This document shows, piece after piece, positions 8,094-26,676 of a stretch of DNA of 32,000 nucleotides. Each line of letters begins with the position of its first letter. Positions within the stretch are counted from its first letter, which is position 1. The stretch is from Candidatus Saccharimonadota bacterium (GTDB taxonomy: Bacteria > Patescibacteriota > Patescibacteriia > 2-12-FULL-60-25): the NCBI GenBank assembly GCA_023898425.1, contig CP060222.1, positions 480,001-512,000 on the forward strand, read 5' to 3'. The translations under genes were made by a program, and so were the position numbers. The notes beneath the pieces were generated by a model. That model saw only the letters and a program-made list of their open reading frames with translations. It was not told the DNA's origin and ran no database searches.

Positions 8094-8102
8094 TGCTATT
8101 AT
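8094..8102 (+). promoter_or_regulatory. Extended -10 box TGCTATTAT upstream of the small-protein/LRR cassette
   Basis: TGCTATTAT lies at 8094-8102 with no good -35. The ATG of the first cassette gene is at 8128. Confidence 0.35.
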
Positions 8103-8127
8103 ATGAGGTCATCTAGCATTAGATTTT

Positions 8128-8770: not shown

Positions 8771-8782
8771 TACCCCAAACTA

Positions 8783-8988
8783 TGGAATTCAACCCTTTCG
8801 CTAAAAACAACCTCCCTTCTGTTTCGATGTTTGCTAAAGAAAAGAAGAAAACGATACGAGCCACTGCCGAGGTAGTGGATGATCTTGAACGCAAATACTT
8901 GATTGAGGAATTTCTGGGTGTCGATATGAACTTTAAAACACGTCAGTTCTTTAAAGAGTTGGTTGGACGGGTAGGGAGTCAGACGTGA
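8783..8988 (+). CDS. Small conserved protein, cassette copy B
   Basis: The ATG at 8783 lies inside track ORF 8677..8988. The product is MEFNPFAKNNLPSVSMFAKEKKKTIRATAEVVDDLERKYLIEEFLGVDMNFKTRQFFKELVGRVGSQT. It is a paralogue of copy A: NPF, S-x-FA-x-E, DLE-x-[RK]-[FY], E-[YF]-LGV-x-M-x-[YF]-x-TR-x-F. Confidence 0.6.
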
Positions 8989-9134
8989 AGATCATATTGG
9001 GGAATATTTTTACCTTTTTCTCTCCAAAAGGTGAGCTTTTTTGTCTCGACTTATCGAATATCTCTCTTGCAAAAGACAAAGCATTCATCGATCAACTAAA
9101 AGTAGACTTTCCAGATATTGAAGTCGTGCTGTAA
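8985..9134 (+). CDS. Short LRR C-terminal-cap remnant, cassette copy B
   Basis: The GTG at 8985 overlaps the upstream stop (GTGA), with GGGAG 8 nt upstream. The 49-aa product KIILGNIFTFFSPKGELFCLDLSNISLAKDKAFIDQLKVDFPDIEVVL aligns with the tail of the copy A LRR protein (LLVLDCSWNPIALDPEYQAELKAQRPGLEII). It is below the track length cutoff. Confidence 0.4.
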   Translation: MKIILGNIFTFFSPKGELFCLDLSNISLAKDKAFIDQLKVDFPDIEVVL

Positions 9135-9173
9135 GCTCTATTATTGCCTTTTTTCGAGTGTCTACTGCCCTTA

Positions 9174-11574: not shown

Positions 11575-12732
11575 ATGTCTGTCTTGATTTTTCTCCTCAT
11601 TTTATCGGTTCTTGTTCTTGTTCACGAGCTTGGTCACTATGTTGCCGCTCGTATTTTTGGCGTAAAGGCCGAAGAGTTTGGCTATGGCTTTCCTCCTCGT
11701 GCTATTGGTTTTGTAAAAGTCGGTAAAAAATGGAAGCGCGTTTCTGGTTCGGACCAACGTAACTATGAAAATACCGTCTGGTCTCTTAATTGGTTGCCTT
11801 TAGGTGGATTTGTGAAATTAAAAGGCGAACAAGGTGACGGTACAGATCAACCGGACTCGTTTCAATCAAAAGCTGGTTGGAAGAAATTTATCATTCTTGC
11901 CGCTGGCGTCTTTATGAATTGGTTACTCGCATCGGCGATTTTTGCTTTTGGCTTTGCCTCTGGAGTGCCAGCTGAGCTTTCAGGATTGCCGCAAAACGCG
12001 ATTATCACCAACCAACATATCGAAATCACCGAGATTGTTGCCGGGAGTGCCGCACGCGAAGCAGGCCTTGAAGCAGGAGATTACATTTTGACACTTGATA
12101 ACCGTCAACCAACAAATGCAGACGACGCTCAACTCATCCTAAAAGGATACGGCGAAAATCAACCCATTAATTTCACTATTCGACGTGATGGCGAAGAAAA
12201 AGTGATTACAACTTCAGCAAAATTCTTACCCGAACTTGAGCGTGCGGGCTTTGGTATCGCGATTACAGATATTGGTATTGTAAAGTTTCCGTTCTTCTCG
12301 GCAATTGGACAAGGATTTGTGACAGCCACCTCTTATGCAGGTGCGATTATCGCAGGATTCGGACAGCTCATTCATGATCTCTTTTCTGGCGGTGGTCAGG
12401 CAGCAGATGTGTCCGGACCTGTTGGTATCGCAATTATTACTGGCCAAGTCTCAGAACGTGGCTTTTGGGCATTGATACAATTTACCGCCATCCTCTCGTT
12501 AAACCTTGCTGTTATCAACTTCTTACCAATCCCAGCTCTTGATGGTGGACGTGCGCTTTTTGTCATTTTTGAGACGCTACGTCGCAAAAAGAACGATCCT
12601 CGTATCGAGGCGGCCGTCCATCAGATCGGTTTTCTCGTTTTATTGGGCTTAATCCTCATTGTGACCCTTAAAGACCTCCAAAAGTACGGCTCCTCAATTT
12701 GGAGTGGATTATTAGGCGTATTTGGTATATAA
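11575..12732 (+). CDS. rseP: Site-2 protease, RseP/M50 family zinc metalloprotease with PDZ domain
   Basis: The track ORF 11284..12732 includes an implausible upstream extension. The ATG at 11575 gives MSVLIFLLILSVLVLVHELGHYVAARIFG, placing HExxH in TM1. A PDZ-like segment follows (ITEIVAGSAAREAGLEAGDYILTLDN), and the C-terminal NFLPIPALDGG motif is present. Confidence 0.88.
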   Translation: MSVLIFLLILSVLVLVHELGHYVAARIFGVKAEEFGYGFPPRAIGFVKVGKKWKRVSGSDQRNYENTVWSLNWLPLGGFVKLKGEQGDGTDQPDSFQSKAGWKKFIILAAGVFMNWLLASAIFAFGFASGVPAELSGLPQNAIITNQHIEITEIVAGSAAREAGLEAGDYILTLDNRQPTNADDAQLILKGYGENQPINFTIRRDGEEKVITTSAKFLPELERAGFGIAITDIGIVKFPFFSAIGQGFVTATSYAGAIIAGFGQLIHDLFSGGGQAADVSGPVGIAIITGQVSERGFWALIQFTAILSLNLAVINFLPIPALDGGRALFVIFETLRRKKNDPRIEAAVHQIGFLVLLGLILIVTLKDLQKYGSSIWSGLLGVFGI

Positions 12733-12744
12733 ACAGCATATCCT

Positions 12745-13812
12745 ATGTATATCGATGAAGCATTGCGCCTTCTTGCTAAAGAAGCGCGTGACCTGGTGCC
12801 TGCAATCTCCACACTAGAGTCCTTAGAGGAGGCCAAAACCAACTTCTTAGGACGCAAAGGTCAACTCGCAGAGCTCATGAAGCGAATGGCCGAAGCAACT
12901 ACCGAAGAGCGCCCAAAACTCGGCGCCATGGCGAACGAGATCAAAGTCGAACTCGAAGCGCTCTTTTCTGATACCGAATCACGACTAAAGCGCGAGGCAC
13001 TTAATGAAAGTCTTGCCTCAGAGACCGAGGACATCACTGAACCTGGCATCATGCCGCCTCGTGGTCATATTCATGTCATGAATCAAGCCATGGATGAAAT
13101 CGAAGGCATCTTTACCAAGGCTGGCTTTACACGCGTACGCTATCCAGAAGTTGAATGGGATGATTTTGCGTTTGAACGCTTAAACATGCCTAAAGACCAT
13201 CCTGCACGTGATGAATGGGAAACCTTCTTTATGGATGCGCCTTCACATCCACAATTTGGAAAGATGTTATTAACGCCTCATGCAACAAGTGGCACAGCAC
13301 GTATCTTAAACGAAAAACAATTACCGATTCGTGCCATCAACATCACAAAAACGTATCGTCGCCAAATGGGTATTCGTCATTTGCCAATGTTTCATCAATT
13401 TGATGGTGTTTACGTAGATAAAAATGTTTCGATCACACATTTACGTGGACTCTTTGATTACTTCGTTCACGAATTCTTTGGTCCAGAACGCAAGACACGT
13501 TATCGCCCATATCACTTTAGATTTACTGAGCCGTCATTTGAAATTGATATTTCCTGCGCTGCTTGTGACGGAACGGGTGTACTCAAAGACGAAAGCAAAT
13601 GCCGTATCTGTAAACATGGCTGGCTCGAACTTGGCGGCGCTGGCATGCTTCATCCAAATGTCTTAAAAGCAGCCGGTATCGATCCGGACGAATATTCTGG
13701 TCTTGCCTTTGGCTGGGGAATCGAACGCACCTACATGATGAAAGAAGGCTTAAACCTCGACGATATTCGTACCCTCTACAAGAACGACGTGCGTTTCTTG
13801 GAACAATTCTAG
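12745..13812 (+). CDS. pheS: Phenylalanine--tRNA ligase alpha subunit
   Basis: 355 aa. An N-terminal coiled coil (FLGRKGQLAELMK) is followed by the class II core: HPARDEWETFF, FRFTEPSFE, GWLELGGAGMLHPNVL, GWGIERTYM. Confidence 0.92.
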   Translation: MYIDEALRLLAKEARDLVPAISTLESLEEAKTNFLGRKGQLAELMKRMAEATTEERPKLGAMANEIKVELEALFSDTESRLKREALNESLASETEDITEPGIMPPRGHIHVMNQAMDEIEGIFTKAGFTRVRYPEVEWDDFAFERLNMPKDHPARDEWETFFMDAPSHPQFGKMLLTPHATSGTARILNEKQLPIRAINITKTYRRQMGIRHLPMFHQFDGVYVDKNVSITHLRGLFDYFVHEFFGPERKTRYRPYHFRFTEPSFEIDISCAACDGTGVLKDESKCRICKHGWLELGGAGMLHPNVLKAAGIDPDEYSGLAFGWGIERTYMMKEGLNLDDIRTLYKNDVRFLEQF

Positions 13813-13815
13813 AGT

Positions 13816-14154
13816 ATGCCCCAGCCCACTGCTCTTGACCGTGTTCTACACCATGTAGGTAGATTCATCGCAAAGCTCTTTGTACTGATACTCTTCCTCG
13901 GTATTTATCGCTTGGCAGATATCCTTGAATTATCCTCCTATGGTCAACTAGAATTTACGGTAGGCTGCGGCTGTGTGGCACTCTTTCTTAGTCGGATACT
14001 GCTGATATTTCGCGCAAAAGGGCTCGGGCACGATGATATGAGAACAGTTATCACTAGAGCATTGAGCGACGATAAAAATTCTATCTTAGTTCGTGACATT
14101 TTCCTTGTCTTTACCGGCCTTTTCTTCATCGTAATTAGCTTTATTGATTTCTAA
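13816..14154 (+). CDS. Small hypothetical membrane protein wedged between pheS and pheT
   Basis: 112-aa ORF. The ATG is 3 nt after the pheS stop, and its own stop is 3 nt before the pheT ATG. It has three hydrophobic segments: LFVLILFLGIY, GCGCVALFLSRILLIF, IFLVFTGLFFIVISFI. Confidence 0.5.
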   Translation: MPQPTALDRVLHHVGRFIAKLFVLILFLGIYRLADILELSSYGQLEFTVGCGCVALFLSRILLIFRAKGLGHDDMRTVITRALSDDKNSILVRDIFLVFTGLFFIVISFIDF

Positions 14155-14157
14155 CCT

Positions 14158-15435
14158 ATGAACCTCCTCACTTCTTATCGCTGGTTGCGTGAATACGTTG
14201 ACCTTGGCAAAACAACAGCTGAAGAATTCGCTGAACGCGTTTCGCTTTCTGGTCCGGGCGTAGAGCAGCTTATCCCTCAAGGCAAAGATCTTGAGAATAT
14301 TGTTATTGGTAAAATTCTTCGCATCGAAGAGCATCCAAAAGCACAAAAATTACGCTTGCCGATTGTTGATATTGGTGGACGCGAACTCACCATTGTTTGC
14401 GGTGGTACCAATATCGTCGAAGGTCAGCTTGTTGCGGTGGCACTGGTTGGCGCAAGTGTGCGTTGGCACGGAGAAGGGGAGCTAATCGTGCTTGAACCAA
14501 TCGAAATTCGCGGCGTAAAGAGCGAAGGGATGATTTGTGCGGCAAATGAGATTGGTTTATTTGACGCGTTTCCACACGGAGATGGAGAAATTTTAGATCT
14601 TGGTAAAAGCATCCCAGAATTATCTGTTGGACTTGGCACACCACTTGCTGATGCGCTTGGATTATCTGATGACACCGTCATGGACATCGAAGTTACGACC
14701 AATCGTCCTGATGCGATGGGAATGGTCGGTATGGCGCGTGAAGCATCTGCCATTTTAGACGCAGACTTCACCTGGAAAGCCCCAAAACTCCCATCAAAAA
14801 TCAAAGTTTGCGAAAAGCTCGAAGTAAACGTCGAAGAAAAAGAGCTCGCACCTCGCTATATGGCGGTGCGTATGGATGGCGTAAAGGTCACCGACTCTCC
14901 ATGGTGGATTAAACGTCTCCTGCTTGGTGCTGGAGTACGTCCACATAATAACGTCGTAGATATCACAAATTTGATTCGTCTTGAGCTTGGCCAACCGATG
15001 CATGCTTTTGATGCGGGCAAACTCGTTGGTGATACGCTTCACATTCGCAAAGCCAAAGCAGGAGAGAAGATCGCTGCACTTGATGGCATTACATACGAAC
15101 TAAGCGAAACAAATCTTGTTATTGCTGATGATGAGCAACCTCAATGCATTGCAGGCATTATGGGTGGCGAACACTCTGCTATCACGACTGATACCGTGAG
15201 CGTTATTTTTGAAGCGGCAACATTTGATCCTGTCTTTACTCGTCGAAGTGCGCGTAAACTCAATGTCTACAGCGACTCGCAAAAACTTTTCGAAAAAGGC
15301 CTCTCAACACAAGCGCCAGAATTTGCGCGCTCGCTCGTGCCATTGAGATGTGTAAGGAGCTTTGTGGAGGAGATGTTTCAAGCGAAATCGTCGACAAGAT
15401 GGCTCACGTCTATAAACCTCAAGAATTCTCCGTAA
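14158..15435 (+). CDS. pheT: Phenylalanine--tRNA ligase beta subunit, fragment 1 of 3 (frame lost near 15325)
   Basis: It contains the tRNA-binding domain (ILRIEEHPKAQKLRL...VCGGTNI) and the B3_4 domain (VTTNRPDAMGMVGMAREA). PheT-like sequence ends at ...GLSTQAPEFA; the remaining ~35 codons are out-of-frame tail. Confidence 0.9.
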   Translation: MNLLTSYRWLREYVDLGKTTAEEFAERVSLSGPGVEQLIPQGKDLENIVIGKILRIEEHPKAQKLRLPIVDIGGRELTIVCGGTNIVEGQLVAVALVGASVRWHGEGELIVLEPIEIRGVKSEGMICAANEIGLFDAFPHGDGEILDLGKSIPELSVGLGTPLADALGLSDDTVMDIEVTTNRPDAMGMVGMAREASAILDADFTWKAPKLPSKIKVCEKLEVNVEEKELAPRYMAVRMDGVKVTDSPWWIKRLLLGAGVRPHNNVVDITNLIRLELGQPMHAFDAGKLVGDTLHIRKAKAGEKIAALDGITYELSETNLVIADDEQPQCIAGIMGGEHSAITTDTVSVIFEAATFDPVFTRRSARKLNVYSDSQKLFEKGLSTQAPEFARSLVPLRCVRSFVEEMFQAKSSTRWLTSINLKNSP

Positions 15436-16010
15436 AAACCGAGCAGGTTACCACGCTCATTGGCTTACCTATCGAAGACAAAGAGATGTTGAGCTCCCTC
15501 AAGAAGCTTGGCTTTGATGCATCCATTAAAAAAGGTGTCTTAACAGCCGAAGTACCTTGGTGGCGTGACCACGATATCGAGTCAGGTCGTGATTTTATCG
15601 AAGAGATTGCACGTTTGCGTGGCTATGCGCATCTACCGGCGGTGTTTCCGGCGGGTATTTCGAATCGTCGTATTACCAAGCAACAAGTTATCGAGAAAAA
15701 GACACGCACGATTCTTAAAGGCGCTGGTTTAAGCGAAGCGTTTACCTATTCATTTGTGTCAGGAGACATGATGAAGAAAGCAGGTTTTGATCCAAGTCAC
15801 ATGTTGAGAATCGATAACCCTCTCACCACCGACTTTGAGTTCATGCGTGCATCGCTCTTACCATCCATGCTCGAAACGATTAGCGAAAATCATGAGCGTC
15901 GCAAAGAGCTCGCATTCTTTGAGATGGCACATATCTACCTCAATACGAGTGAAACTGGTACATGGAATGATCTCCTCAAGAAACCATGCAATTATCCCTT
16001 GGTATTTTGA
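15348..16010 (+). CDS. pheT: Phenylalanine--tRNA ligase beta subunit, fragment 2 of 3
   Basis: This frame already reads ALARAIEMCKELCGG from about 15326. It continues through the B5 region and core (EVPWWRDHDIE, FSYSFVS-like FTYSFVSGD, NPLTTDFEFMRASLLPSMLE). The frame is lost again near 15975. Confidence 0.9.
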   Translation: MCKELCGGDVSSEIVDKMAHVYKPQEFSVKTEQVTTLIGLPIEDKEMLSSLKKLGFDASIKKGVLTAEVPWWRDHDIESGRDFIEEIARLRGYAHLPAVFPAGISNRRITKQQVIEKKTRTILKGAGLSEAFTYSFVSGDMMKKAGFDPSHMLRIDNPLTTDFEFMRASLLPSMLETISENHERRKELAFFEMAHIYLNTSETGTWNDLLKKPCNYPLVF

Positions 16011-16573
16011 GCGATGATGCAGCCTGGAAAAAAGCAAAAGGCGCTACTGAACATCTTCTAAAAGAACTCGGCATTAAAAATGTGACTTGGAAGAAACATG
16101 AAAGCGATCCATTCTGGCACCCAGGACGTTCTGCTCAAGGATTTGTTGGCGAACATCTCGTCGCAACAATTGGTGAAATCCATCCAGAACTTCGTGAGCG
16201 TTATAAGTTTGAAGGTCGTGTTGCCTTAGCCGATATCTCCGTCAAAGAATTAGCTGAGCTTGCCTCCCACGCTGACTATCAACCAATGAATGCCTACCCT
16301 GAGGTTAAGCGTGATCTCGCCTTTATCTTGGATAGCTCCATCGAGGTTCAGTCGATTGTAGACTCTATCAAACAACTCAATCCACTCATCAGACAAGCAG
16401 AATGGTTTGATACCTATAAAGGCAAGGGGATTGCACCAGGCAAAAAATCTGTCGCTATCCGCGTGACGATCGGATCTACCGAGCGCACACTTGAATCAAG
16501 CGAAACCGAGAAAGTCATTGAAGACATAAAAGAACACGTTACCAAAGAGTATCGTGCAGAAAGCAGAAGTTAG
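15986..16573 (+). CDS. pheT: Phenylalanine--tRNA ligase beta subunit, fragment 3 of 3
   Basis: This frame is open from about 15967 (SPQETMQLSLGIL). It contains FWHPGRSA and the C-terminal ferredoxin-fold domain (DLAFILDSSIEV..., FDTYKGKGIAPGKKSVAIRVT). Confidence 0.9.
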   Translation: MQLSLGILSDDAAWKKAKGATEHLLKELGIKNVTWKKHESDPFWHPGRSAQGFVGEHLVATIGEIHPELRERYKFEGRVALADISVKELAELASHADYQPMNAYPEVKRDLAFILDSSIEVQSIVDSIKQLNPLIRQAEWFDTYKGKGIAPGKKSVAIRVTIGSTERTLESSETEKVIEDIKEHVTKEYRAESRS

Positions 16574-16580
16574 TTCAATT

Positions 16581-16604
16581 AAAAACGCCGATAAGGCGTT
16601 TTTG
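16581..16604 (+). terminator. Rho-independent terminator after pheT
   Basis: AAAAACGCC-gataa-GGCGTTTTT: a short GC stem flanked by an A-run and a T-run, 8 nt after the pheT stop. Confidence 0.55.
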
Positions 16605-16648
16605 CTACATAAAGCCATTTTACTATATCAATTATGTCTATTTTACTG

Positions 16649-16677
16649 TTGACAAAAGTGTCATTTTATGGTATTAT
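16649..16677 (+). promoter_or_regulatory. Strong sigma70-type promoter of the lipoprotein array
   Basis: TTGACA (16649-54), a 17-nt spacer ending in TGG, then TATTAT (16672-77). The layout is nearly identical to the promoter at 20653. Confidence 0.6.
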
Positions 16678-16753
16678 TTCGCGTTGACTACAGGAGTATT
16701 CTGCTTCTAAGTCATCACGATTTATGCCGTTTTGCGGCAGAAAGAGGGTTCGA

Positions 16754-18136
16754 ATGTCCTTTTCAAGCAAGATTCTATTGGCGTTTTGCGCCTTCGTTGC
16801 CCTCATGGGCTGCGAAAGTCGCAGAGTAGATGTCTACATCCATGAAGCAACCGGCTGTGAGTCCGACGCGGACTGCGACGCCGTCTATGGCGGTGACACG
16901 TTCACCTGGTGCGACATGGAGGCCGGCAACGGCACCTGTCACTACGAAACGTACTACGAGTACGAGATTCCGAATTGCTACAGCGATCTGGACTGCGACG
17001 ACGGTGACAGCACCTCATCCGACACGTGTAACGCTAATGGGTGTACGCACGTGATCCGTGAAGTCGAAGTCATCGAGGTTTCGGCTCCTTCCGAAGGAGC
17101 CAACATCACCGCAACATTTGCCACCGAAGGACGGCTCACGATCGTCGACGGAAACACCTGGGGTCACCTCGGCGATCTCACCATCACGGCCAATAACACC
17201 ATTGGACGACGCCAAATCCTTGGCATCGTCTTCAGTGGCGCGAACGCCGGCGCGTGGTCGGGAGTTGCTCTGGCGCAAAACGGAGCGGTCGTGAATACGG
17301 CCGTTCCGGTGTCCACCGGCTCCTTTCGAAGCAGTATCGTCTTCAACTTCGACAGCCTCTTCCTAGCGGCTGGCGAAACGATGACCTACCAAGTCTGGGG
17401 CAAGACGGACGAGACGTATTTCACCTCGACGTCGAGGTCGGATCCGACCGTCTCGCTCTCACTCGATGGCTTGCGTATGAATGGCAACGCAGAAGATATC
17501 ATCGTCTCTGAAGAGAGCGGTACCTTCTGGACCATGCTACGCAAAACCAAGCCCACGGTGACGCGCCAAGCGCTCGCAACCACGACGCTCGGCAATACGA
17601 CACAGGATCTGTACAGAATGCAGATCAGTGCCGACGCCCATGGCTCGGTCGAGGTGCATAGCCTCGCCTTCGAGCTCGACGGCAACTCGACAAATCTCGC
17701 ACTATCACACTTCGAAGTCCGCGTCGGCAGCCAACCGCTCCCTCCCAGCGACTACACCGTTCGCGGCGAGGTTGGACTCACCGACTATAGGACGAGCGGA
17801 CTAGCGTTGGGAGATGGAGCTATTCTCATCATCCACTTCATCAATCCGCAAATTGTGACGGGTTCGGGAGTGGTTCTGACGCTCAGCGCCACTATCTCTG
17901 GTACACAGAGCGGCGATCAGGTCACGATCCGCCCCTATACCAGTGCGCCTTGGGGACACGTCGCAAGCGGATGGATGAATGCCGCCGGACGTCTCGTCTT
18001 CTCGAGCGAGGAGGTCTATACCTCTTCAATCGTCTGGCGTGACGGTGCCCATAACTTCAGCGACACGCTTGGTCACTGGGCTTACGGCGACTACGATATC
18101 TTGGACCTTACTCAGGTCCAAGTACTGACCCGCTAG
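16754..18136 (+). CDS. Lipoprotein-like surface protein, paralogue 1 (two 4-Cys modules plus a large beta-rich C-terminal region)
   Basis: The ATG at 16754 is preceded by AGAGGG with a 5-nt spacer; an alternative in-frame ATG is at 16724. MSFSSKILLAFCAFVALMGC is a signal peptide with a lipobox-like LMGC. The Cys modules are C-x5-C-x11-C-x8-C and C-x5-C-x10-C-x4-C. About 360 aa rich in Thr/Ser/Gly/Val follow. I recognise no known domain. Confidence 0.75.
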   Translation: MSFSSKILLAFCAFVALMGCESRRVDVYIHEATGCESDADCDAVYGGDTFTWCDMEAGNGTCHYETYYEYEIPNCYSDLDCDDGDSTSSDTCNANGCTHVIREVEVIEVSAPSEGANITATFATEGRLTIVDGNTWGHLGDLTITANNTIGRRQILGIVFSGANAGAWSGVALAQNGAVVNTAVPVSTGSFRSSIVFNFDSLFLAAGETMTYQVWGKTDETYFTSTSRSDPTVSLSLDGLRMNGNAEDIIVSEESGTFWTMLRKTKPTVTRQALATTTLGNTTQDLYRMQISADAHGSVEVHSLAFELDGNSTNLALSHFEVRVGSQPLPPSDYTVRGEVGLTDYRTSGLALGDGAILIIHFINPQIVTGSGVVLTLSATISGTQSGDQVTIRPYTSAPWGHVASGWMNAAGRLVFSSEEVYTSSIVWRDGAHNFSDTLGHWAYGDYDILDLTQVQVLTR

Positions 18137-18155
18137 TCAGCCCGACAACTCACTA

Positions 18156-18198
18156 CCCCCACCCTCTGATTTCCGTTCTGGAATGACGAGGGTGGGGG
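18156..18198 (+). repeat. GC-rich hairpin element, copy 1 of 3
   Basis: CCCCCACCCTC (18156-66) pairs perfectly with GAGGGTGGGGG (18188-98) around a 21-nt loop (tgatttccgttctggaatgac) that contains an inner TTCC/GGAA pair. It lies 20 nt after the paralogue 1 stop. Confidence 0.8.
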
Positions 18199-18280
18199 AT
18201 CAGTAATGAAGGCTTTACAACGATGTAGAGCTTTCATCTCTGGTTTCAATGCCGTTTCACGGCAGAAAGTTAAGGTTTAT

Positions 18281-19646
18281 ATGTCCTTTTACAGGTTCGC
18301 CCTCATGTTCTGCGCCCTTACCATTGGCTGCAATAGTGCTCCTATGGAGGAATTCATCCATGAGTCGGCAGGATGTCAAACAAGTGAAGACTGCGACCTA
18401 CAGTACGGGCCCAATACCCGTATTTGGTGCACCGTTAGCACGGATGGCGGCACCTGCCACTATCAAACATCCTTTGATCGTGAAGCTCCAGGCTGTGTAA
18501 GCGACCAAGACTGCGATGACAGCGACCCGATATCTCTGGATTCATGTGAAGCAAACGGCTGTAGACATGTTTTTTCTGGGCTCGAAATTTATTTCGAGCC
18601 CATTAGTAGCGTCCTGACTAGCAATAGCGAGGTGTGGCAGAAAATCGGTACGGTCACACTCGTCAGCGCTATCACGCGTCGTATCGACTACCTGGCTCTA
18701 AATTCAGTTGTAATGGATCTTGAGACAGGTACCGGTATTGTTGACACAGCCTTTGTAGGAGATCGAATTTTTGATTCTTTTGCACTCGCGCAGGAAGGTA
18801 ACGTTCGCGTGACAGCCCCAAATACGGGCCTTAACCGAGTTGAGTTCTTCACGCCAGATTTCTTCGTGGAGCTAGCCCCTGGGCATTCCGCATCCTTAGA
18901 GCTCTGGGCTAAGGTCAACCCTTCCTACCACGCCATCTTCCCTGATGACGGTGTGGCGGCACGAGTCACCCTTGCGGCGATCAGTGATCGCAATGGCCAA
19001 ACCTTCTACGGGAATCCGTTCTCTCGTCCGTCGGTGAGTGTGATTCATCGCAGCAAGCCTAGCCTATTGAGGCAGGCCATCGCAACAACGAGGATCAGCA
19101 ATGGTCCACAGCAAGATCTCTACCGGGTGCAAATCACTGCCGATCCAAATGGACCCGTTCGTGTTTACTCACTGAACTTTATCCTCAACGGATCTACGCT
19201 CGGCGGAACGGTCGGAAACTTCTCTCTAAGGAGAGGGCGGTCCAAATTCCCAACGAGGATGCAGAGATCGTCTATTGGGCCCACGAATCCGGTGAGTGGG
19301 TAAAAACGAGCCTTGCTTCTGGAATAGAAGTGTCACCTAGTGATACGGAGTTCTGGATCAACGTGATCTTTCGGGAGCCGTTGATCATCACGAGCAGCGG
19401 CATCGTTCTAACTCTCTCGGCTTCTACATCTGGTTTTGTAGATGGAGACTCGCTGAGCACGACAATTGAGGAGTAGGGCTCGATGGTGTTTGTGGAACAG
19501 ACGGTACTATCGTCCGCGGTCCCGACACCAATCCGATCGTCTGGCGCACTTCTGCCATCGTATGGGACGATTTCGGAATGAATGGTTCCTGCTTCGGCAC
19601 AACTTCTATCGGGACCCTCACATGGGTCACAACGCTGACCCGCTAG
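18281..19646 (+). pseudogene. Lipoprotein-like surface protein, paralogue 2; frame broken twice as written
   Basis: The ATG at 18281 gives MSFYRFALMFCALTIGC, and Cys-module spacing matches paralogue 1. Track ORF 18206..19303 stops being homologous after ...VGNFSL (~19227). The next frame reads KERAVQIPNEDAEIVYWAHESGEW...LTLSASTSGFVDGDSLSTTIEE up to 19476. A third frame reads GVGLDGVCGTDGTIVRGPDTNPIVWRTSAIVWDDFG...TWVTTLTR with its stop at 19644-46. All three pieces align with paralogue 1, including the shared terminal LTR. Confidence 0.7.
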
Positions 19647-19667
19647 TCAGCCCAACAACTCTGAAGA

Positions 19668-19710
19668 CCCCCACCCTCCGATTTCTGTTCTGGAATGACG
19701 AGGGTGGGGG
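19668..19710 (+). repeat. GC-rich hairpin element, copy 2 of 3
   Basis: The same 11-bp stem: CCCCCACCCTC at 19668-78 and GAGGGTGGGGG at 19700-10. The loop differs from copy 1 at two positions. Confidence 0.8.
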
Positions 19711-19789
19711 ATCAGCAATGAAGGCTTTACATGGTAGTAGAGCTTTCATCTCTGGTTTAACGCCGTTTCACGGCAGAAAGAGGGTTCGA

Positions 19790-20560
19790 ATGTCCTTTTC
19801 CAGCAAGCTTTTCCTGGCGCTTTGCGCCGCGTTCGCCCTCATGGGCTGCCAGGACCACCGGGTGGATGTCTACATCCACGAGGATACGGGCTGTCAGTCC
19901 GACGCGGACTGCGACGAGGCGTATGGCGATGACACGATCGCCTCGTGCATCCAAGAGACGGGCGCTTGTCGCTACGTCACGACAAACGTGACGGAGGTCG
20001 AAGCACCTCCTTGCTTCACCGATGCAGAGTATGCTGACGACAACGCGTCGTCGGCAGACACCTGCGACGAAGGCACTTGTATTCATACCGTCCGTCTGGG
20101 CGGTGTGAGCACAATCGTGTTCGGCACGCAAAGGATGTACGGGGAGTATGCCGCTCCCTATGTTTCGTCGACAACAATCTCGACGGAGATCGAGTCCCCG
20201 CAGCTATTGGGGACGTTCCAGATCATCAATGATTCTGGAAGCGAGTTCGTCATCGACGAACTCGACTTCGGCGCAACGACCGCCCTCGGCCACTGTGCCG
20301 AGGTAACAGCCGACTATCGGTACTACACAGAATTTGTGTACGAACCGATAGAGGGACTGGAGCTTAGCGAGGAAGGCCTCATCCTGAACTTCGACGCCGT
20401 GTCAATCCCGGCATCCGAGATGGTCTGGATTGGCCTTTACTGCCGCGTGAACGCGGCAACAGAGGCCGCTGAGGCGGTACTTTTCACTCCGCGCTGGGAG
20501 TGGAACCCTGACATCCCCGTGTACACGGACAGCGCGCCTGTCATCGTGTACTTCAACTAA
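19790..20560 (+). CDS. Lipoprotein-like surface protein, paralogue 3 (short form with an unrelated C-terminal half)
   Basis: The ATG at 19790 follows AGAGGGTTCGA, as for paralogue 1. MSFSSKLFLALCAAFALMGC is the signal/lipobox-like sequence. The first Cys module is conserved; the second has Tyr in place of its second Cys (PCFTDAEYADD). The C-terminal ~150 aa do not resemble paralogues 1 or 2. Track ORF 19466..20560 carries a spurious 5' extension. Confidence 0.75.
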   Translation: MSFSSKLFLALCAAFALMGCQDHRVDVYIHEDTGCQSDADCDEAYGDDTIASCIQETGACRYVTTNVTEVEAPPCFTDAEYADDNASSADTCDEGTCIHTVRLGGVSTIVFGTQRMYGEYAAPYVSSTTISTEIESPQLLGTFQIINDSGSEFVIDELDFGATTALGHCAEVTADYRYYTEFVYEPIEGLELSEEGLILNFDAVSIPASEMVWIGLYCRVNAATEAAEAVLFTPRWEWNPDIPVYTDSAPVIVYFN

Positions 20561-20567
20561 CTTCGAG

Positions 20568-20610
20568 CCCCCACCCTCCGATTTCCGTTCTGGAATGACG
20601 AGGGTGGGGG
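20568..20610 (+). repeat. GC-rich hairpin element, copy 3 of 3; probably also the array terminator
   Basis: The same stem (20568-78 / 20600-10), 8 nt after the paralogue 3 stop. Only this copy is followed by a T-rich tail (atttctattattt). Confidence 0.8.
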
Positions 20611-20652
20611 ATTTCTATTATTTAAATATATGTATTAACGTCAACAACTTAC

Positions 20653-20681
20653 TTGACAAAATGACTATTCTATGGTATTAT
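20653..20681 (+). promoter_or_regulatory. Strong promoter giving an apparently leaderless mRNA
   Basis: TTGACA (20653-58), a 17-nt spacer ending in TGG, then TATTAT (20676-81). The ATG at 20688 lies only 6 nt after the -10 box. Confidence 0.6.
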
Positions 20682-20687
20682 ATTGCC

Positions 20688-21251
20688 ATGAATAAATACT
20701 TGTCATCCCTATCTTTGGCTATTATCGGTACATTAACGATTAGCTCACAAGCGCTTGCAGCGCCAGGTGTTGTGTATAAAAAACGTTTGTCATTACCAAC
20801 TGTTCCAACATCTATTATCTCACAAGCGGAGAAGTCCTTGTGGCGTCTCCCGACAGAAAAAAGCACAAAACTTGGTCAGCCAGTATTTGAAAACTTTACG
20901 AATCTAAAAACAAATCCTCCTGTTTTTATAGGTGAAAAAGACTGTTCGGGCGTCACGTATCGCGCATGGTCTGTAACCGTTGATTTAGAGACGGAAAGAA
21001 AAAATCATCCGACGTTACTTCCTTATTCTCGTTATTATAAAGATGCAGACGGTATTTACGAGCAACAGAAATATCTTTTTGAAGCAAGAACACCCGAGGA
21101 GGTGAAATGGCATATTGATACAACGAAAAATGTTCGCTACTCAACGGAGCCATTCTTTTCTTGTAGAAACAAAGACGTTGTCTTGGAGTACTCTGTAAGA
21201 GATTTAGAGAGTGAGCGTCCATACTACGCACCAAGATTTTTAAAACCGTAA
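20688..21251 (+). CDS. Secreted Tyr-rich hypothetical protein, N-terminal fragment (frame lost at 21237-21245)
   Basis: The ATG at 20688 inside track ORF 20595..21251 gives MNKYLSSLSLAIIGTLTISSQALAAP, a signal peptide with an A-x-A cleavage site. No known domain. Confidence 0.65.
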   Translation: MNKYLSSLSLAIIGTLTISSQALAAPGVVYKKRLSLPTVPTSIISQAEKSLWRLPTEKSTKLGQPVFENFTNLKTNPPVFIGEKDCSGVTYRAWSVTVDLETERKNHPTLLPYSRYYKDADGIYEQQKYLFEARTPEEVKWHIDTTKNVRYSTEPFFSCRNKDVVLEYSVRDLESERPYYAPRFLKP

Positions 21252-21409
21252 ATTATAACGGCTTTGCAAATTCAAATTCTTGGAATACAGGAGCTGCGCA
21301 AATTCCTAATAACTACAATACGGAGTCTGTTATCGTTGACGGTATTAAGCAATATCCTGGGCAGTTAACGGTAGGATACACTAGCTATCAAACTACTGGC
21401 GACAGTAGA

Positions 21410-21931
21410 GTGATGTCAGCGGACGTAAAAAACGGTTTTCATCTCCATACATTGCCTCATTATCGAGACCTCACACAGATTACACAAAGTGATACCAAAG
21501 TAATTTACGCGAACTTCTACCGCTTATCTGACGGCTATGGTGTTGTTGAAACAACATATGACTATACAGTGGACAGAGCTGCGCCAAAGATCACCTATTA
21601 TCGTATTCGCAATGGTGAGGCCCGTTATTCTGTTGTAGATTCTTTGCCATTCGAGAGTCGCTCCGTGATTATCACGTACGATAAAGGTGTCACGATGTTT
21701 TCAGGTGCTAAGACCCTTGAAAGCTACTACCTTGGCTACCCATACTTTGGCAAAACTGACGCCTACTTGATTCACGGTATAGCTTCTGGTCATCTTGGCC
21801 CTGAAGCCGTTTACCAAGTAATCCCGTCAATCCTCTGGGAAACCGATGCTCAAGTGTATACACGTTACATGATCACTGATCGTATCACAGGCAAACAACA
21901 GTATTGGGAAGCAACAGTGAATAAACAATAA
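21410..21931 (+). CDS. Continuation of the secreted Tyr-rich protein (C-terminal fragment)
   Basis: This frame is already open from 21215. Upstream of the track start it reads KTVNYNGFANSNSWNTGAAQIPNNYNTESVIVDGIKQYPGQLTVGYTSYQTTGDSR. It joins the previous ORF if one base is restored in the T5A4 run at 21237-21245. The composition is the same (Tyr/Thr/Asn rich). Confidence 0.6.
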   Translation: MMSADVKNGFHLHTLPHYRDLTQITQSDTKVIYANFYRLSDGYGVVETTYDYTVDRAAPKITYYRIRNGEARYSVVDSLPFESRSVIITYDKGVTMFSGAKTLESYYLGYPYFGKTDAYLIHGIASGHLGPEAVYQVIPSILWETDAQVYTRYMITDRITGKQQYWEATVNKQ

Positions 21932-21956
21932 AAAAAATTAATTTGTGAAAACAAAA

Positions 21957-21988
21957 ACTCCTCCGATATTTTTCGGAGGAGTTTTTTG
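21957..21988 (+). terminator. Rho-independent terminator
   Basis: ACTCCTCCGA-tatttt-TCGGAGGAGT: a perfect 10-bp stem flanked by an A-run upstream and TTTTTT downstream. Confidence 0.8.
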
Positions 21989-22053
21989 TCCACACAATTT
22001 TTCTGAAGAGAAATTTTTTCATGTTAAAATTCTTTTTGTCGAAAGGAGAAATT

Positions 22054-22461
22054 GTGACGCGATATCAGCGCAAACCTACGAGCTCAATTCTTCCAACGTC
22101 ACACTCTGACATTGGCGCGCCGATATCAAGCAAAGATTCAGGCGTTGCAAAAATTGCACTCTATAAAGTACATGTTCTTATTCTTCACGAGAATACAACG
22201 CCGCAATATTGTACAGGCAAGCTCTATATTAGACATGGACACTACCAACTTGAGTCTCATTTCTTTTTTACCTCTCTCGACATCGAACTTGATTCGTTGC
22301 CGGTGGTGAGCCTAGAAAGAAAACTAACAAGTGGTATCGGTGCACGCTATGAACATATCGACGACCTCGGTGAAAAACATCAAGCGCGTGTTATGATCTT
22401 TGACACGTCCGAAAATGCTATGACCTGGCAAAACGATTTTCTTTGTAAGACTTCACACTGA
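22054..22461 (+). CDS. Hypothetical protein
   Basis: The track ORF is 22021..22461. The GTG at 22054 is preceded by AAAGGAGAA with a 6-nt spacing, the best SD in this block. The 135-aa product has no recognisable domain or signal peptide. Confidence 0.5.
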   Translation: MTRYQRKPTSSILPTSHSDIGAPISSKDSGVAKIALYKVHVLILHENTTPQYCTGKLYIRHGHYQLESHFFFTSLDIELDSLPVVSLERKLTSGIGARYEHIDDLGEKHQARVMIFDTSENAMTWQNDFLCKTSH

Positions 22462-22488
22462 GAGAGCGCGACAAACGCTCTCTTTCTT
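22461..22488 (+). terminator. Rho-independent terminator
   Basis: AGAGAGCG-cgacaaa-CGCTCTCT followed by TTCTT. It overlaps the stop codon. Confidence 0.6.
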
Positions 22489-22489
22489 A

Positions 22490-22518
22490 TTGACAAAAGC
22501 GTTGAATAAAGGTAATAG
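22490..22518 (+). promoter_or_regulatory. Candidate promoter of the pentapeptide-repeat gene
   Basis: TTGACA (22490-95, the same TTGACAAAAG context as at 16649), a 17-nt spacer, then TAATAG (22513-18). Confidence 0.4.
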
Positions 22519-22553
22519 ATTATAGACAAGCGTTTCCCCGAAAGGGCGGTGTC

Positions 22554-22940
22554 ATGGGCCAACGAGGCAGTAAATATGAGTTTTACTTTAACTTGCTCGA
22601 CCAAGGAGTTCCTGCCTGGAATACCTGGCGCAAAGATCATCCAGACAAGATTATTGATCTATCTGGGGCAAATCTTAACTACCTAGATCTAAGCAAGGTA
22701 AACTTCTCAAAAGTGAACCTCGACAATGCACGTTTTCAAGGTACAAACTTTAGAGATGCTGACTTTCAGCTATCATCGTTACGTTTCGTCAATATCTATC
22801 GCTGTACGCTTGATGGTGCAAATTTTTATGGCGTTAAGTCGTCTTTTGTCACTATTGTTGATACTTCACTTGCTACTGTTCAAGGCAAAGAATTTCTCAA
22901 TGGTGCACTTTGTCGAACGTCACGTTCTTCTATGCTTTAA
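22554..22940 (+). CDS. Pentapeptide repeat protein
   Basis: 128 aa. The N-terminal GVPAWNTWRKDHPDKIIDLSGANL is typical of this family. Tandem A(D/N)LxX-type pentads follow: ANLNYLDLSKVNFSKVNLDNARFQGTNFRDADFQLSSLRFVNIYRCTLDGANFYG. Confidence 0.75.
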   Translation: MGQRGSKYEFYFNLLDQGVPAWNTWRKDHPDKIIDLSGANLNYLDLSKVNFSKVNLDNARFQGTNFRDADFQLSSLRFVNIYRCTLDGANFYGVKSSFVTIVDTSLATVQGKEFLNGALCRTSRSSML

Positions 22941-24036: not shown

Positions 24037-26676
24037 ATGGCTGACCAAATCCCTCAAGAGGCTGAAATAAAGCCTCGTTCTCCATTTGTGCAGCTTCATG
24101 CGCATTCGATGTATTCATTATCTGATGCTATGGGGAGTCCTGATGACATCGTAAAGCATGCCCTAAGCCTTGGATACGATGCACTAGCTCTTACCGATCA
24201 CAATGGACTTTATTCTGCGATCGAATTTTACGAGTCAGGCAAAAAGCACGGTCTCAAAACCATTGTTGGCGTAGAGGTTAATGTCGCACCAAATAAACAT
24301 ACGGATAAACGCGCTGGTATTGATCAACATACCACGCATCTCACTTTACTCGCAGAAACCAATGAGGGGTATCACAATCTTTTGCGTTTAGTTTCTATTT
24401 CAAATATCGATGGTTTTTACTATCGTCCACGTGTTGATAAAGAGCTTTTAAAAAAACACAACGAAGGCATCATTGCATTGTCGGGTTGTCTCAAGGGCGA
24501 AATCCCAAAAGCAATCCACATGCATGACGAAGAAAAAGCGCTTAAGTCTGTTGAGGAGTTTAAAGAGATCTTTCGTCCAGATTGTTTTTTTATCGAACTC
24601 ATTCATCATCCAGAGTCTCCAACACAAAATGAAGTCAATGAAGGACTTATTGCTTTAGCCAAAAAAACCGATCTCCCCGTTGTTGCAACGCGTAATGTTC
24701 ATTATCTGGTAGAAGAAGACCGCGAAGCACAAGATGTTTTATGCTGTATTCACGATGGTAAAATCTTGGATGATCCACGTCGTTCTACCATGTCGAGCCT
24801 TGATCTCTCGATGTGTCCACCCGAATACATGGTGGAGGCATTTGTAGATTTACCAGAGGCCATCGAAAATACACGAAAGATTGCTGATCGTTGCAATGTC
24901 GAAATTGAACTTGGGGTAAACCACTTGCCTAAGTTTGATGTTCCAGAAGGGGAGACGGAGTTTACTCAATTAAAAAAACTTTGTGAGATTGGCCTTCTTG
25001 AACGTTATCCGGATCCTGAGCAACTCGTAAAAGCAAAAGAACGTCTTACCTTTGAGCTTGAGACGATTGAGCGCATGGGTTTTGCTGCCTACTTTTTGAT
25101 TGTAGCGGACTATATTAACTGGGCAAAAGACCACGATGTGATTGTAGGGCCCGGCCGTGGATCAGCCGCAGGCTCCATTGTTGCCTATGCGCTAAAAATC
25201 ACAAACCTAGATCCGCTCTATTACGGATTACTCTTTGAGCGTTTTTTAAATCCGGATCGTATCTCAATGCCTGATATTGATACCGATTTTGATGATGTAA
25301 AACGTAAAGATGTTATTGAGTATGTGACACAAAAATACGGAGCTGACCGTGTAGCGGGTATTATTACTTTTGGTACTATGGCGGCTCGTGCTGCTGTGCG
25401 TGATGTGGGTCGTGTATTAGACATGCCTTATGCTGATGTCGATAAAGTAGCTAAAGCGATTCCGCCACCTCAACAAGGTAGACATATCCCATTAAAAGTC
25501 TCTAAAGAAGAAGCGCCGGAGTTGCGTGACATGTACCAAAACGATCCACGTATTAAGCGTTTGATCGATTTAGCGATTCGTCTCGAAGGTACAACACGCC
25601 ATGCCTCACAGCATGCCTGTGGCATTGTGATTGCTCCTGAGGCGCTCTCTGAACTCTCCCCACTCCAAAAGGCACAGGGTGGTGATGTTGATCAGGTTGT
25701 GCAATATGCCAACCATTCCGCCGAAGTGACAGGATTATTAAAGATGGATTTTTTGGGTCTCTCTAACTTATCAGTCATCCGTGATTGTCTTGAGATTACA
25801 GAGGCGGTTTATGGTGACGTGATTGATATTAACGAGATACCACTTGATGATCCAAAAACGTACGAGCTATTAGGAAAAGGGGAGACGACTGGTGTTTTTC
25901 AACTCGAGTCAGATGGCATGAAAAAGTATATCCGTGAATTACGTCCATCTGTCATCGAAGATATTATCGCTATGGTGGCGCTGTATCGTCCTGGTCCGAT
26001 GCAATTTATCGAATCCTTTATTAATCGTAAGCATGGACGCGAAAAGGTGACCTTCATGCATGAGCTCACCAAAAGCGCCCTTCAAAACACCTATGGTATT
26101 CCGGTGTATCAAGAGCAAGTGATGCAAGTGGCCAAAGACATGGCCGGTTTTACTCCTGGAGAAGCTGACACCCTCCGTAAAGCGATGGGTAAGAAGATCG
26201 CAAAACTCATGGCCGAGCTACGCGTAAAGTTTATCGAAGGCTCCATCAAAAAAGGCGTGGAGGCAAAAACAGCTGAGGCGATTTTTACCCAGTTTGAAGA
26301 GTTTGCTGCCTATGGCTTTAATAAGTCACATGCGGCTTGTTATGCATTGATTGCTTATCAAACAGCCTATTTAAAAGCGCATTATCCAGATGCATTTATG
26401 GCGGCGCTCTTAAATAGCGACATTAACAATATTGATCGTATTACGATCGAGGTCGAGGAGTGTAAGCGCATGAATATGCCGGTATTACCACCGGATGTAA
26501 ATGAATCATTCGCGCGCTTTGCCGTTGTTAAGGGCAAAAACTCGCTTCGCTTTGGTCTTGCTGCGGTAAAAGGGCTCGGTGAAGATATTTCTGAAGCAAT
26601 CATCAAGAAGAAAAAACCAATGGATCATTTAAAGATCTCGAGGACTTTGTTACGCGCATGGATCCATTTGGTTTAA
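24037..26676 (+). CDS. dnaE: DNA polymerase III alpha subunit, fragment 1 of 2 (frame lost at A6, 26611-26616)
   Basis: It has a PHP domain (FVQLHAHSMYSLSDAMGSP, ALTDHNGLY) and a polymerase core (GPGRGSAAGSIVAYALKIT, MPDIDTDF, YRPGPM, FNKSHAACYA). DnaE-like sequence ends at ...GEDISEAIIKKKK; the last ~20 codons are out of frame. Confidence 0.92.
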   Translation: MADQIPQEAEIKPRSPFVQLHAHSMYSLSDAMGSPDDIVKHALSLGYDALALTDHNGLYSAIEFYESGKKHGLKTIVGVEVNVAPNKHTDKRAGIDQHTTHLTLLAETNEGYHNLLRLVSISNIDGFYYRPRVDKELLKKHNEGIIALSGCLKGEIPKAIHMHDEEKALKSVEEFKEIFRPDCFFIELIHHPESPTQNEVNEGLIALAKKTDLPVVATRNVHYLVEEDREAQDVLCCIHDGKILDDPRRSTMSSLDLSMCPPEYMVEAFVDLPEAIENTRKIADRCNVEIELGVNHLPKFDVPEGETEFTQLKKLCEIGLLERYPDPEQLVKAKERLTFELETIERMGFAAYFLIVADYINWAKDHDVIVGPGRGSAAGSIVAYALKITNLDPLYYGLLFERFLNPDRISMPDIDTDFDDVKRKDVIEYVTQKYGADRVAGIITFGTMAARAAVRDVGRVLDMPYADVDKVAKAIPPPQQGRHIPLKVSKEEAPELRDMYQNDPRIKRLIDLAIRLEGTTRHASQHACGIVIAPEALSELSPLQKAQGGDVDQVVQYANHSAEVTGLLKMDFLGLSNLSVIRDCLEITEAVYGDVIDINEIPLDDPKTYELLGKGETTGVFQLESDGMKKYIRELRPSVIEDIIAMVALYRPGPMQFIESFINRKHGREKVTFMHELTKSALQNTYGIPVYQEQVMQVAKDMAGFTPGEADTLRKAMGKKIAKLMAELRVKFIEGSIKKGVEAKTAEAIFTQFEEFAAYGFNKSHAACYALIAYQTAYLKAHYPDAFMAALLNSDINNIDRITIEVEECKRMNMPVLPPDVNESFARFAVVKGKNSLRFGLAAVKGLGEDISEAIIKKKKPMDHLKISRTLLRAWIHLV

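Follow-up and report, generated by a model that had tools for sequence, protein, structure and literature searches.

Introduction

Vsp, Vlp and Vsa of the wall-less Mycoplasma and Vmp and Vls of the spirochaete Borrelia are multigene families of variable surface lipoproteins. The Patescibacteria, or candidate phyla radiation (CPR), are thought to live attached to other cells, and few of their surface molecules are known. Here we describe a locus of three paralogous genes, p1, p2 and p3, which are predicted to encode lipoproteins and lie between the housekeeping genes pheT and dnaE of a Candidatus Saccharimonadota bacterium (contig CP060222.1, positions 480,001 to 512,000; this stretch of 32 kb as a whole is termed the window). 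Contigs of relatives used for comparison are designated by L-numbers; several of them bear sample labels of the sludge type.

Like the Mycoplasma and Borrelia families, the locus is a tandem array of paralogous lipoprotein genes in which leader and signal peptide are conserved and the mature parts divergent. Unlike these families, to which it shows no sequence relationship, it was found to contain no repeat tract, invertible promoter or silent-cassette expression site, and it varies between strains, with no sign of a switch. A further relevant system is the cell-wall-associated island of Haloquadratum walsbyi, a flexible (“replacement”) island of cell-envelope proteins (PMC4535781). A fixed site, strain-variable surface genes, an atypical composition and a tendency of contigs to break there are common to that island and to the present locus. 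In contrast to the H. walsbyi island, the locus measures only ~4 kb; its genes belong to one lipoprotein family, share a conserved 5′ module and are separated by conserved structured spacers, and the compositional shift of the locus is equal in all lineages. As a phenomenon, the flexible surface-protein island is well known; a shift that recurs in every lineage, here in the GC content at third codon positions (GC3), is unusual for an island of recent import.

We consider it most probable, at about 60%, that the locus is an operon of three lipid-anchored surface proteins, each with a Cys-rich stalk and divergent beta-sandwich binding domains, situated in a flexible envelope island, with duplication of cassettes, their exchange by homologous recombination, and a spacer RNA that tunes processing or attenuation.

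Results

Structure of the locus and its content in relatives

Three same-strand open reading frames (ORFs) fill a GC-rich island at ~16.7 to 20.6 kb of the window, between pheT and dnaE. ORF calling located all three genes that a first-pass annotation of the sequence had proposed (16754-18136, 18281-19646 and 19790-20560), p2 being readable after two frame repairs; the last called ORF fragment of pheT ends at 16573. The features of the locus are listed below (HP, hairpin).

16577..16603, + strand: pheT terminator hairpin with T-run, the left border of the locus (read from the sequence)
16649..16677, + strand: promoter P1 (TTGACA, 17 nt, TATTAT, TG extension)
16685..16753, + strand: p1 5′ leader, comprising a stem-loop (16685-16714), HP3 (16726-16738, GCCG-loop-CGGC) and a purine-rich ribosome-binding site (16741-16748)
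16754..18136, + strand: p1, predicted 460-aa lipoprotein, GC3 0.69
16754-16813, + strand: p1 signal peptide and lipobox, codons 1-20
16811-17059, + strand: two 4-Cys modules of p1, residues 20-102
17060-18133, + strand: type-A C-terminal region of p1, predicted all-beta
18154..18246, + strand: intercistronic structured RNA element, copy 1, HP1 + HP2 (fold z-score -7.0; covariance model 110 bits)
18251..18263, + strand: HP3, directly upstream of the p2 ribosome-binding site (from sequence and folding)
18281..19646, + strand: p2, type-A paralogue with two 1-nt deletions (~19234, ~19467), GC3 0.54
19666..19758, + strand: intercistronic structured RNA element, copy 2, HP1 + HP2 (z-score -6.1; covariance model 107 bits)
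19762-19774, + strand: HP3 following RNA element copy 2
19790..20560, + strand: p3, predicted 256-aa lipoprotein with a short type-C C-terminal domain (20096-20557), GC3 0.735
20566..20629, + strand: HP1 hairpin (20568-20612), then a T-rich tail; probably terminates the p1-p2-p3 unit
20653..20681, + strand: promoter P2, paralogue of P1, heading the next transcription unit
20682..21931, + strand: gene of a secreted 415-aa protein, split by a 1-nt deletion near 21241, low GC

The window shares the gene order clpB-M48-LemA-PGM-racemase-M50-pheS-pheT-[locus]-dnaE with L001, a Patescibacteria metagenome-assembled genome (Patescibacteria group bacterium STL-PAT1), the DNA identity between the two being 74 to 78% in pheS, pheT and dnaE. 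In L001, L002/L003, L005, L008 and L018 the locus likewise starts directly after pheT; the dnaE end of the interval is visible in the window and L001 only. The site holds one to four cassettes in relatives. Their C-terminal domains are of at least three kinds (A, B and C), and genes of other lipoproteins are present as well, as follows.

Window: promoter, A (p1), A′ (p2), C (p3)
L002/L003: 126-aa coiled-coil lipoprotein, a second type-C gene (67% identical to p3), A, A′, C
L005: 125-aa lipoprotein, single A
L001: 153-aa lipoprotein, B, SLT lipoprotein with a like signal peptide
L006, L015, L018: B, an A with three Cys modules, then a coiled-coil or 358-aa lipoprotein

The same flanking core genes thus enclose differing content, and the composition departs from that of the backbone. 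The locus is a flexible genomic island of envelope/surface proteins. The first-pass annotation had proposed a surface-variation locus, and this was supported in two respects: the products are exported, lipoprotein-like paralogues with conserved N-terminal and divergent C-terminal parts, and the number and types of genes vary among relatives, which do not share one and the same array. The variation is at the level of the population, with no sign of switching within a single cell. Neither tandem or simple repeats, dinucleotide repeats or homopolymers of seven or more nucleotides at the locus, nor invertible elements or inverted repeats flanking the promoter, were found. Phase variation was rejected, as the locus has no repeats and no switching device.

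Shared N-terminal modules and divergent C-terminal regions

Lipoprotein signal peptides were recognized by a regular expression of the PROSITE PS51257 type (K/R near the N-terminus, a hydrophobic stretch, [LIVMFWSTAG](2)-[LIVMFYSTAGCQ]-[AGS]-C, with the Cys at approximately residue 15 to 35). The signal peptides previously noted to end in Cys (LMGC, TIGC and LMGC) all conform to this rule, with Cys20 in p1, Cys17 in p2 and Cys20 in p3. The window contains neither lgt nor lspA. The Cys modules follow the pattern C-x-(S/T)-D-x-(D/E)-C-D...C...G-x-C-H, with invariant His and Gly residues. A pair of 4-Cys modules, ascribed to all three proteins at first, is present in p1 and p2, whereas the second module of p3 retains three Cys residues (Cys to Tyr).

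p1 and p2 are 33% identical overall and 47% identical in the Cys-module region, in agreement with the earlier estimate of less than half in the N-terminal stretch. Identity between p1 and p3 is 53% over residues 1-102, and past residue 102 the two are unalignable, as expected if the C-terminal half of p3 is both shorter and unrelated. When the p3 C-terminus was compared with the type-A domain, profile against profile, no significant similarity emerged.

The three proteins could not be assigned to a characterized family. In searches of p1, p2 and p3 against Pfam-A and NCBIfam no score reached a family cut-off, the few matches lying far below, and a PHROGs scan of p1 to p3 gave nothing. Scans with these three libraries that also took in the neighbors of p1 to p3 yielded no family. 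A PDB sequence profile search with the whole protein yielded nothing at E<=1, and the same search with the Cys modules gave a single match at E=0.12. The Cys modules alone produced weak compositional matches only (Nodulin_late, WAP and Dicty_CTDC). Overall, the sole leads were sub-threshold and compositional, namely the TraA Cys-repeat region, Dickkopf_N and late nodulin.

A Cys-rich stalk beside a membrane anchor, combined with a polymorphic recognition domain, is also the plan of TraA of Myxococcus xanthus (NF033759; Cys-rich repeat TIGR04201). The locus products might by analogy be polymorphic self/non-self (kin) receptors with a homotypic variable distal domain: their topology runs from anchor through Cys-rich modules to a variable domain, their allele types vary between strains, and their Cys modules show sub-threshold similarity to the Cys repeats of TraA (E 0.12 with p1, 0.001 with the relative P0014). 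However, NF033759 scores only 10.9 bits with p1 and 17.7 bits with P0014, against a cut-off of 750. The domain order is reversed with respect to TraA, the similarity is sub-threshold, and neither a PA14 domain (Pfam) nor MYXO-CTERM is present. In addition, there are several different paralogues per genome, and no TraB-like partner gene was seen. We consider kin recognition of this type quite improbable.

An AlphaFold2 model of p1, built on an eight-sequence alignment, is all-beta past the signal helix, with a mean predicted local distance difference test score (pLDDT) of 65 and values of 80 to 89 over approximately residues 270-430. When the model was compared with the PDB by Foldseek, the matches were tandem immunoglobulin (Ig)-like sandwiches (integrin alpha legs, SdrG, FnBPA, SdrD and pilins), with transglutaminase barrels also among them. 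The C-terminus of p1, as predicted, resembles Ig-like adhesins (SdrG, FnBPA, SdrD; integrin alpha thigh/calf) in its tandem beta-sandwiches; unlike them, it has identities of 8 to 12% and a template modeling (TM) score of ~0.2, a predicted lipid anchor instead of LPXTG, and no ligand-binding trench that could be inferred. The structural matches would place p1 in a fold class and in nothing narrower. Foldseek against a viral library gave nothing specific, and a phage origin was rejected.

Beta-sandwich lipoproteins are often carbohydrate-binding and CPR bacteria rely on scavenging, which raises the alternative that these are surface lipoproteins for nutrient or glycan capture, like the surface glycan-binding proteins of Bacteroides. 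Surface glycan-binding protein B was indeed found among the Foldseek matches, at rank 37, but with a probability of 0.21 and a TM-score of 0.08. The locus contains no transporter or glycoside hydrolase genes, and no carbohydrate-binding-module family was detected. We therefore give little credence to glycan capture.

Distribution of the protein family

A word-indexed search of 5.8 billion proteins returned six relatives of p1 and two of p3, and with a 52-sequence profile it returned seven proteins only. The N-terminal Cys-module family is present in 2 of 185,579 species genomes, in both of them directly downstream of pheT. The C-terminal part of p1 has a wider distribution: when 1.84 billion cluster representatives were searched exhaustively with a profile, 263 proteins that share the type-A C-terminal domain were retrieved at E<=1e-3. 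N-terminal Cys modules occur in only ~12 of the top 150 matches of this search, the others sharing the type-A domain.

We define the type-A family by a core, ...KSKPTVTRQ.L..T.L.NG..QDLYK.Q..AD..G.V..., and by the end ...(I/V)W.D...W...DL....TL(T/S)R at the very C-terminus. Among 51 representatives aligned with p1, lengths range from ~210 to 1300 aa, with the type-A domain at the very C-terminus; most end in ...WSD.SE.PH...DWT...DLTQ.QTLTR. By the lipobox rule given above, 28 of the 51 have a lipobox, some of the remainder being fragments. Both p1 and p2 possess the core motif and the end ...IVW(R/D)D...TLTR, while p3 falls outside the family. p1 and p2 are divergent members of this wider, unnamed and mostly lipoprotein family. 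The first-pass annotation could match the large C-terminal region to no known family; a named family was not found here either, but the region does belong to the wider, uncharacterized type-A family.

A second C-terminal type, B, was found in the relatives P0005, P0006, P0009 and P0010, and the third, type C of p3, is known only from this population. Some type-A members have three Cys modules in place of two (L006 1513-2925, L015 1592-3004, L018 909-2321 and P0007). A literature search on Cys-rich lipoproteins of CPR bacteria found nothing relevant. The protein family, the Cys module, the type-C domain and the spacer RNA described below are undescribed in the libraries searched.

A compositional anomaly common to all lineages

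The GC content is 0.575 in p1, 0.518 in p2 and 0.582 in p3, compared with 0.44 to 0.47 in housekeeping genes and 0.39 to 0.42 in the next block. In 500-nt segments it amounts to 0.51 to 0.59 over 17001-20500, to 0.41 to 0.47 almost everywhere else and to 0.39 to 0.42 just downstream. The tetranucleotide distance to the rest of the window exceeds the mean by more than 2 standard deviations in all 2-kb segments between 16.5 and 21 kb. Both profiles bear out the early description of a GC-rich island between flanks of ~45% GC and followed by an AT-richer block. The GC excess is at synonymous (third codon) sites, where p1, p2 and p3 reach 0.69, 0.54 and 0.735, respectively, versus 0.34 to 0.43 in ten housekeeping genes; GC at first and second positions is ordinary.

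The high GC3 of p1 and p3 (0.69 to 0.74), the tetranucleotide peak and the extreme rarity of the family could all be explained by recent import of foreign DNA from a donor of higher GC, and the composition had been called foreign in the first-pass annotation. Comparison with relatives speaks against this view. Genes of the family occur at the same site in at least five lineages, and their GC3 is 0.70 to 0.77 in every lineage examined, whereas that of the backbone ranges from 0.39 to 0.61 (0.39 in L003, 0.52 to 0.56 in L005 and L018, 0.61 in L001). The synonymous divergence (dS) between p1 and its L005 counterpart is 1.7, similar to that of pheS/pheT (1.3 to >3), which fits long residence without amelioration. 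Moreover, no integrase, tRNA or flanking att-like repeat was found at the locus. Recent import is thus unlikely. Because the GC3 bias is constant across lineages and dS is backbone-like, we regard the bias as a long-standing property of the locus and not as proof of recent import. Most simply read, the locus has long resided alongside the backbone under a locus-specific force that holds GC3 high; candidates for this force are GC-biased gene conversion at a hot spot of recombination (PMC4450053), codon-usage selection and repeated replacement from a shared GC-rich pool.

Frameshifts, selection and mosaicism

L003 is near-identical to the window over 16869-22615, with four substitutions and three single-base gaps, and in all three gaps a base within a short run is missing from the window (~19234, ~19467 and ~21241). 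In L003 both p2 (455 aa) and the downstream 415-aa gene are intact, and p2 of the window differs from it by two 1-nt indels and a single substitution (position 19203). Elsewhere in the window, pheT (14158-16573) is in three pieces, with an extra CG at ~15323, which three relatives lack, and with a gap of 1 nt at ~15973, and dnaE (24037-27596) is in two pieces that overlap at 26658-26676. Gene breaks by such small indels occur in the window only, the relatives being intact, and none was seen in the first 14 kb. Because pheT, dnaE and the 415-aa gene have similar indels, sequence errors are the simplest cause of the p2 frameshifts; the indels in all four genes are probably sequencing or assembly errors. 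Since p2 is intact in L003 and its breaks are likely errors, we treat it as a functional gene.

The frameshifts in p2 and the Cys residue missing from p3 might also mark a decaying paralogue array of no current function, in which p2 is a pseudogene. In addition to the intact p2 of L003 and the similar indels in other genes, two observations oppose this. The Cys-to-Tyr change of p3 is also found in L003, and the pairwise ratio of nonsynonymous to synonymous divergence (dN/dS) of the locus genes is 0.06 to 0.24, compared with 0.05 for pheT. The locus genes are real, functional and under purifying selection, and decay is highly improbable.

After codon 38, p1 of L003 equals p1 of the window except for one substitution. 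Over the first 38 codons, it is 76% identical to p1 of the window and 87% identical to p3. p1 of L003 is thus mosaic, its breakpoint lying within the conserved 5′ module. The right end of the near-identical block lies at ~22616, inside a gene of a pentapeptide-repeat protein. Between the window and L002, identity is 99 to 100% at 11801-12700 and 14201-15100 and 82 to 94% at 12701-14200 and 15101-16600. This patchwork may reflect either pervasive recombination between two diverged lineages, whose dS in pheS is 0.75, or chimeric metagenome assembly.

Promoters and structured spacer RNA

The strong promoter annotated at 16649 was borne out: P1 agrees with the consensus in 11 of 12 positions, and a TG extension is present. 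The pattern TTGACA-N12-TATGGTATTAT occurs only at 16649 and 20653 in the 32 kb. P1 (16649-16690) and P2 (20653-20694) are 74% identical over 42 nt, a likeness that could be due to shared regulation or to a duplicated promoter module. A P1-type promoter precedes the first cassette in L003, L005, L001 and L008, and no promoter-like sites were found in the spacers. The stem of the p1 leader differs in L003, L005 and L008 yet stays complementary (by eye), and the leader core CCGTTTCACGGCAGAAAG precedes every cassette.

An 11-bp G+C hairpin, CCCCCACCCTC-N21-GAGGGTGGGGG, follows each of the three genes (six arm matches versus 0.13 expected). The earlier remark that only the last copy carries a terminator-like T-tail is correct for the tail, but incomplete, as the same hairpin stands after all three genes. 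Inside transcription units HP1 is followed by ATCAG, and at unit ends by a T-run. The two spacers, of 147 and 146 nt, each fold into three hairpins with a minimum free energy of -64 kcal/mol. HP1, the 11-bp G+C stem, encloses a small inner hairpin; HP2 has a stem of 5 + 13 bp; and HP3 lies directly next to the ribosome-binding site.

A covariance model of HP1 + HP2 detected 23 strong copies (67 to 110 bits) at 12 loci, all between genes of this locus type, with no match elsewhere in the window or in loci of the wider type-A family. Two of eight matches of a metagenome pattern scan (L011 and L013) were rejected as chance, having no covariance-model match; L011 lacks the partner arm and bacterial-style ORFs, and L013 has 66% GC. 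Across 17 distinct copies of HP1 + HP2, 98.9% of cells are paired. Compensatory double changes affect eight pairs, versus 2.3 +/- 1.1 after shuffling (0 of 500 shuffles reach eight) and zero to two when partners are slid, in an alignment that was fitted to the covariance model and that contains many close relatives among the copies. G-U pairs are fixed at several positions, where the complementary strand would have C-A mismatches, and the constraint is therefore on the sense-strand RNA. Rfam 15 gave no match at gathering thresholds across the window; at E<=1, the sole match within 16550-20750 is a chance match to the pheT terminator.

Repetitive extragenic palindromic (REP)-type elements, as in malEFG, are intercistronic hairpins that serve differential stability or partial termination. 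The spacer hairpins resemble them in being stable and in lying between cistrons of one unit, and a spacer hairpin plus T-run closes the unit. Unlike REP-type hairpins, the spacer is a locus-specific composite of three hairpins of ~110 nt without a match in Rfam.

Since the same imperfect hairpins follow each gene and cassette order varies between strains, the hairpins might be recombination sites of an integron-like or other site-specific cassette array. The same spacers even separate unrelated genes in relatives (those of the coiled-coil, SLT and 358-aa lipoproteins and of a 412-aa secreted protein). However, the pheT-dnaE interval of the window and of L001 contains no integrase or recombinase, and no attC-type core sites were recognized by eye in the hairpins. 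The G-U pairs place the constraint on RNA, and ~300 nt of shared coding 5′ end suffice for ordinary homologous recombination. A site-specific cassette array is accordingly very unlikely.

Further cassettes and neighboring genes

A coiled-coil gene is a further optional cassette, found at 1411-1791 of L003 (126 aa) and 3070-3471 of L006 (133 aa) and not in the window. The L003 product has a lipoprotein-like N-terminus, and the L006 gene is preceded by an HP1-HP2-HP3 spacer and leader as the Cys-module genes are. A small SLT (lytic transglycosylase) gene, also without a counterpart in the window, lies 3′ of a lipoprotein gene in L001 (11418-11900) and L019 (11520-11972). The signal peptide of the L001 SLT protein is almost identical to that of the neighboring family member. 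In L019 as well as in L020, the gene of a DUF2207 membrane protein follows a few genes further downstream, and the SLT and DUF2207 neighborhood is possibly a conserved envelope module.

The interval also harbors a second family of secreted proteins, with one copy in the window (20682-21931), one in L005 (9438-10676) and two in L001 (12007-14454). These proteins have a signal peptide ...ALAAPGVVYKKRL and the C-terminal sequence ...YWEATVNK (...YWEATVNKQ in the window), and are 44 to 45% identical between lineages. In each lineage their GC3 either falls short of the backbone range or sits in its lowest part, opposite to the lipoprotein genes. They have no Pfam or NCBIfam match. The pentapeptide-repeat protein (128 aa; Pfam PF00805, E 1.4e-16) is encoded at 22554-22940, also within the pheT-dnaE interval.

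Two further regions differ between the window and its relatives. Between LemA and the phosphoglucomutase gene, the window has ~1.2 kb (8007-9172) that are absent from L001 and contain short ORFs only, including a leucine-rich-repeat-like ORF of 91 aa (8495-8770); two of the ORFs share a repeated ...DLE(D/R)(R/K)(F/Y)...EE(Y/F)LGV.M...T..F motif. The pheS-pheT gap is longer in L002 (~2355-2510, +155 nt) and L005 (4589-4900), where small ORFs of 112 aa and 103 aa, respectively, are called; the window is without such an insert.

Discussion

According to the reading that we prefer, an operon of lipid-anchored surface proteins in a flexible island, the single near-consensus promoter probably transcribes p1-p2-p3 as one unit, and each product would be exported and lipid-anchored at the Cys that ends its signal peptide. 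The two 4-Cys modules would form a conserved stalk off the membrane, presenting the divergent C-terminal beta-sandwich region, of type A in two proteins and of the short type C in the third. Whole genes, comprising the conserved leader, the signal peptide, the Cys-module 5′ end and the 3′ hairpin, would be duplicated, lost and swapped by homologous recombination. The HP1-HP2-HP3 spacer RNA most likely acts on the polycistronic mRNA by setting its processing, its stability or its partial termination. The role of the products is most likely binding, whether as adhesion or as recognition at the cell surface. Such binding could extend to host-cell contact, as would be expected for epibiotic CPR bacteria.

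Several results weigh against this reading. The Foldseek matches of the p1 model, at E values of 1e-6 to 1e-3, have TM-scores of only ~0.2 and are generic; the only grounds for the term adhesin are consequently fold class and topology. The Cys modules are modeled with a pLDDT of ~57 to 72, and because they are of low confidence and match nothing known, a disulfide- or metal-stabilized stalk is a guess. For the C-terminal domain of p3, a single-sequence model (pLDDT 42) gave no usable fold, and the profile comparison gave no link to type A. No signal of diversifying or positive selection was seen, pairwise dN/dS being <1 throughout. Exchange specific to the island, which the 5.7-kb block 99.9% identical to L003 might have indicated, was rejected, the flanks being equally mosaic. 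The fitted alignment and the relatedness of its copies are caveats to the covariation count.

A more speculative proposal, which we hold to be doubtful, is that the locus represents a modular cassette-exchange system of one Patescibacteria clade. Here, HP1-HP2-HP3 together with the leader, signal peptide and Cys modules would serve as RNA signals and homology arms, and strains would swap host-attachment domains. If this were true, the constant GC3 of 0.70 to 0.77 would be the footprint of frequent recombination via GC-biased gene conversion (PMC4450053).

The locus provides a short list of candidate surface proteins of CPR bacteria, with a 4-Cys module and three kinds of distal domain. Since the pheT-dnaE site is fixed, easily amplified and strain-variable, it is a possible strain marker and a start for work on host specificity. 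The constancy of GC3 against a drifting backbone offers a natural test of biased gene conversion versus codon-usage selection, and the locus-specific intercistronic structured RNA is testable on its own.

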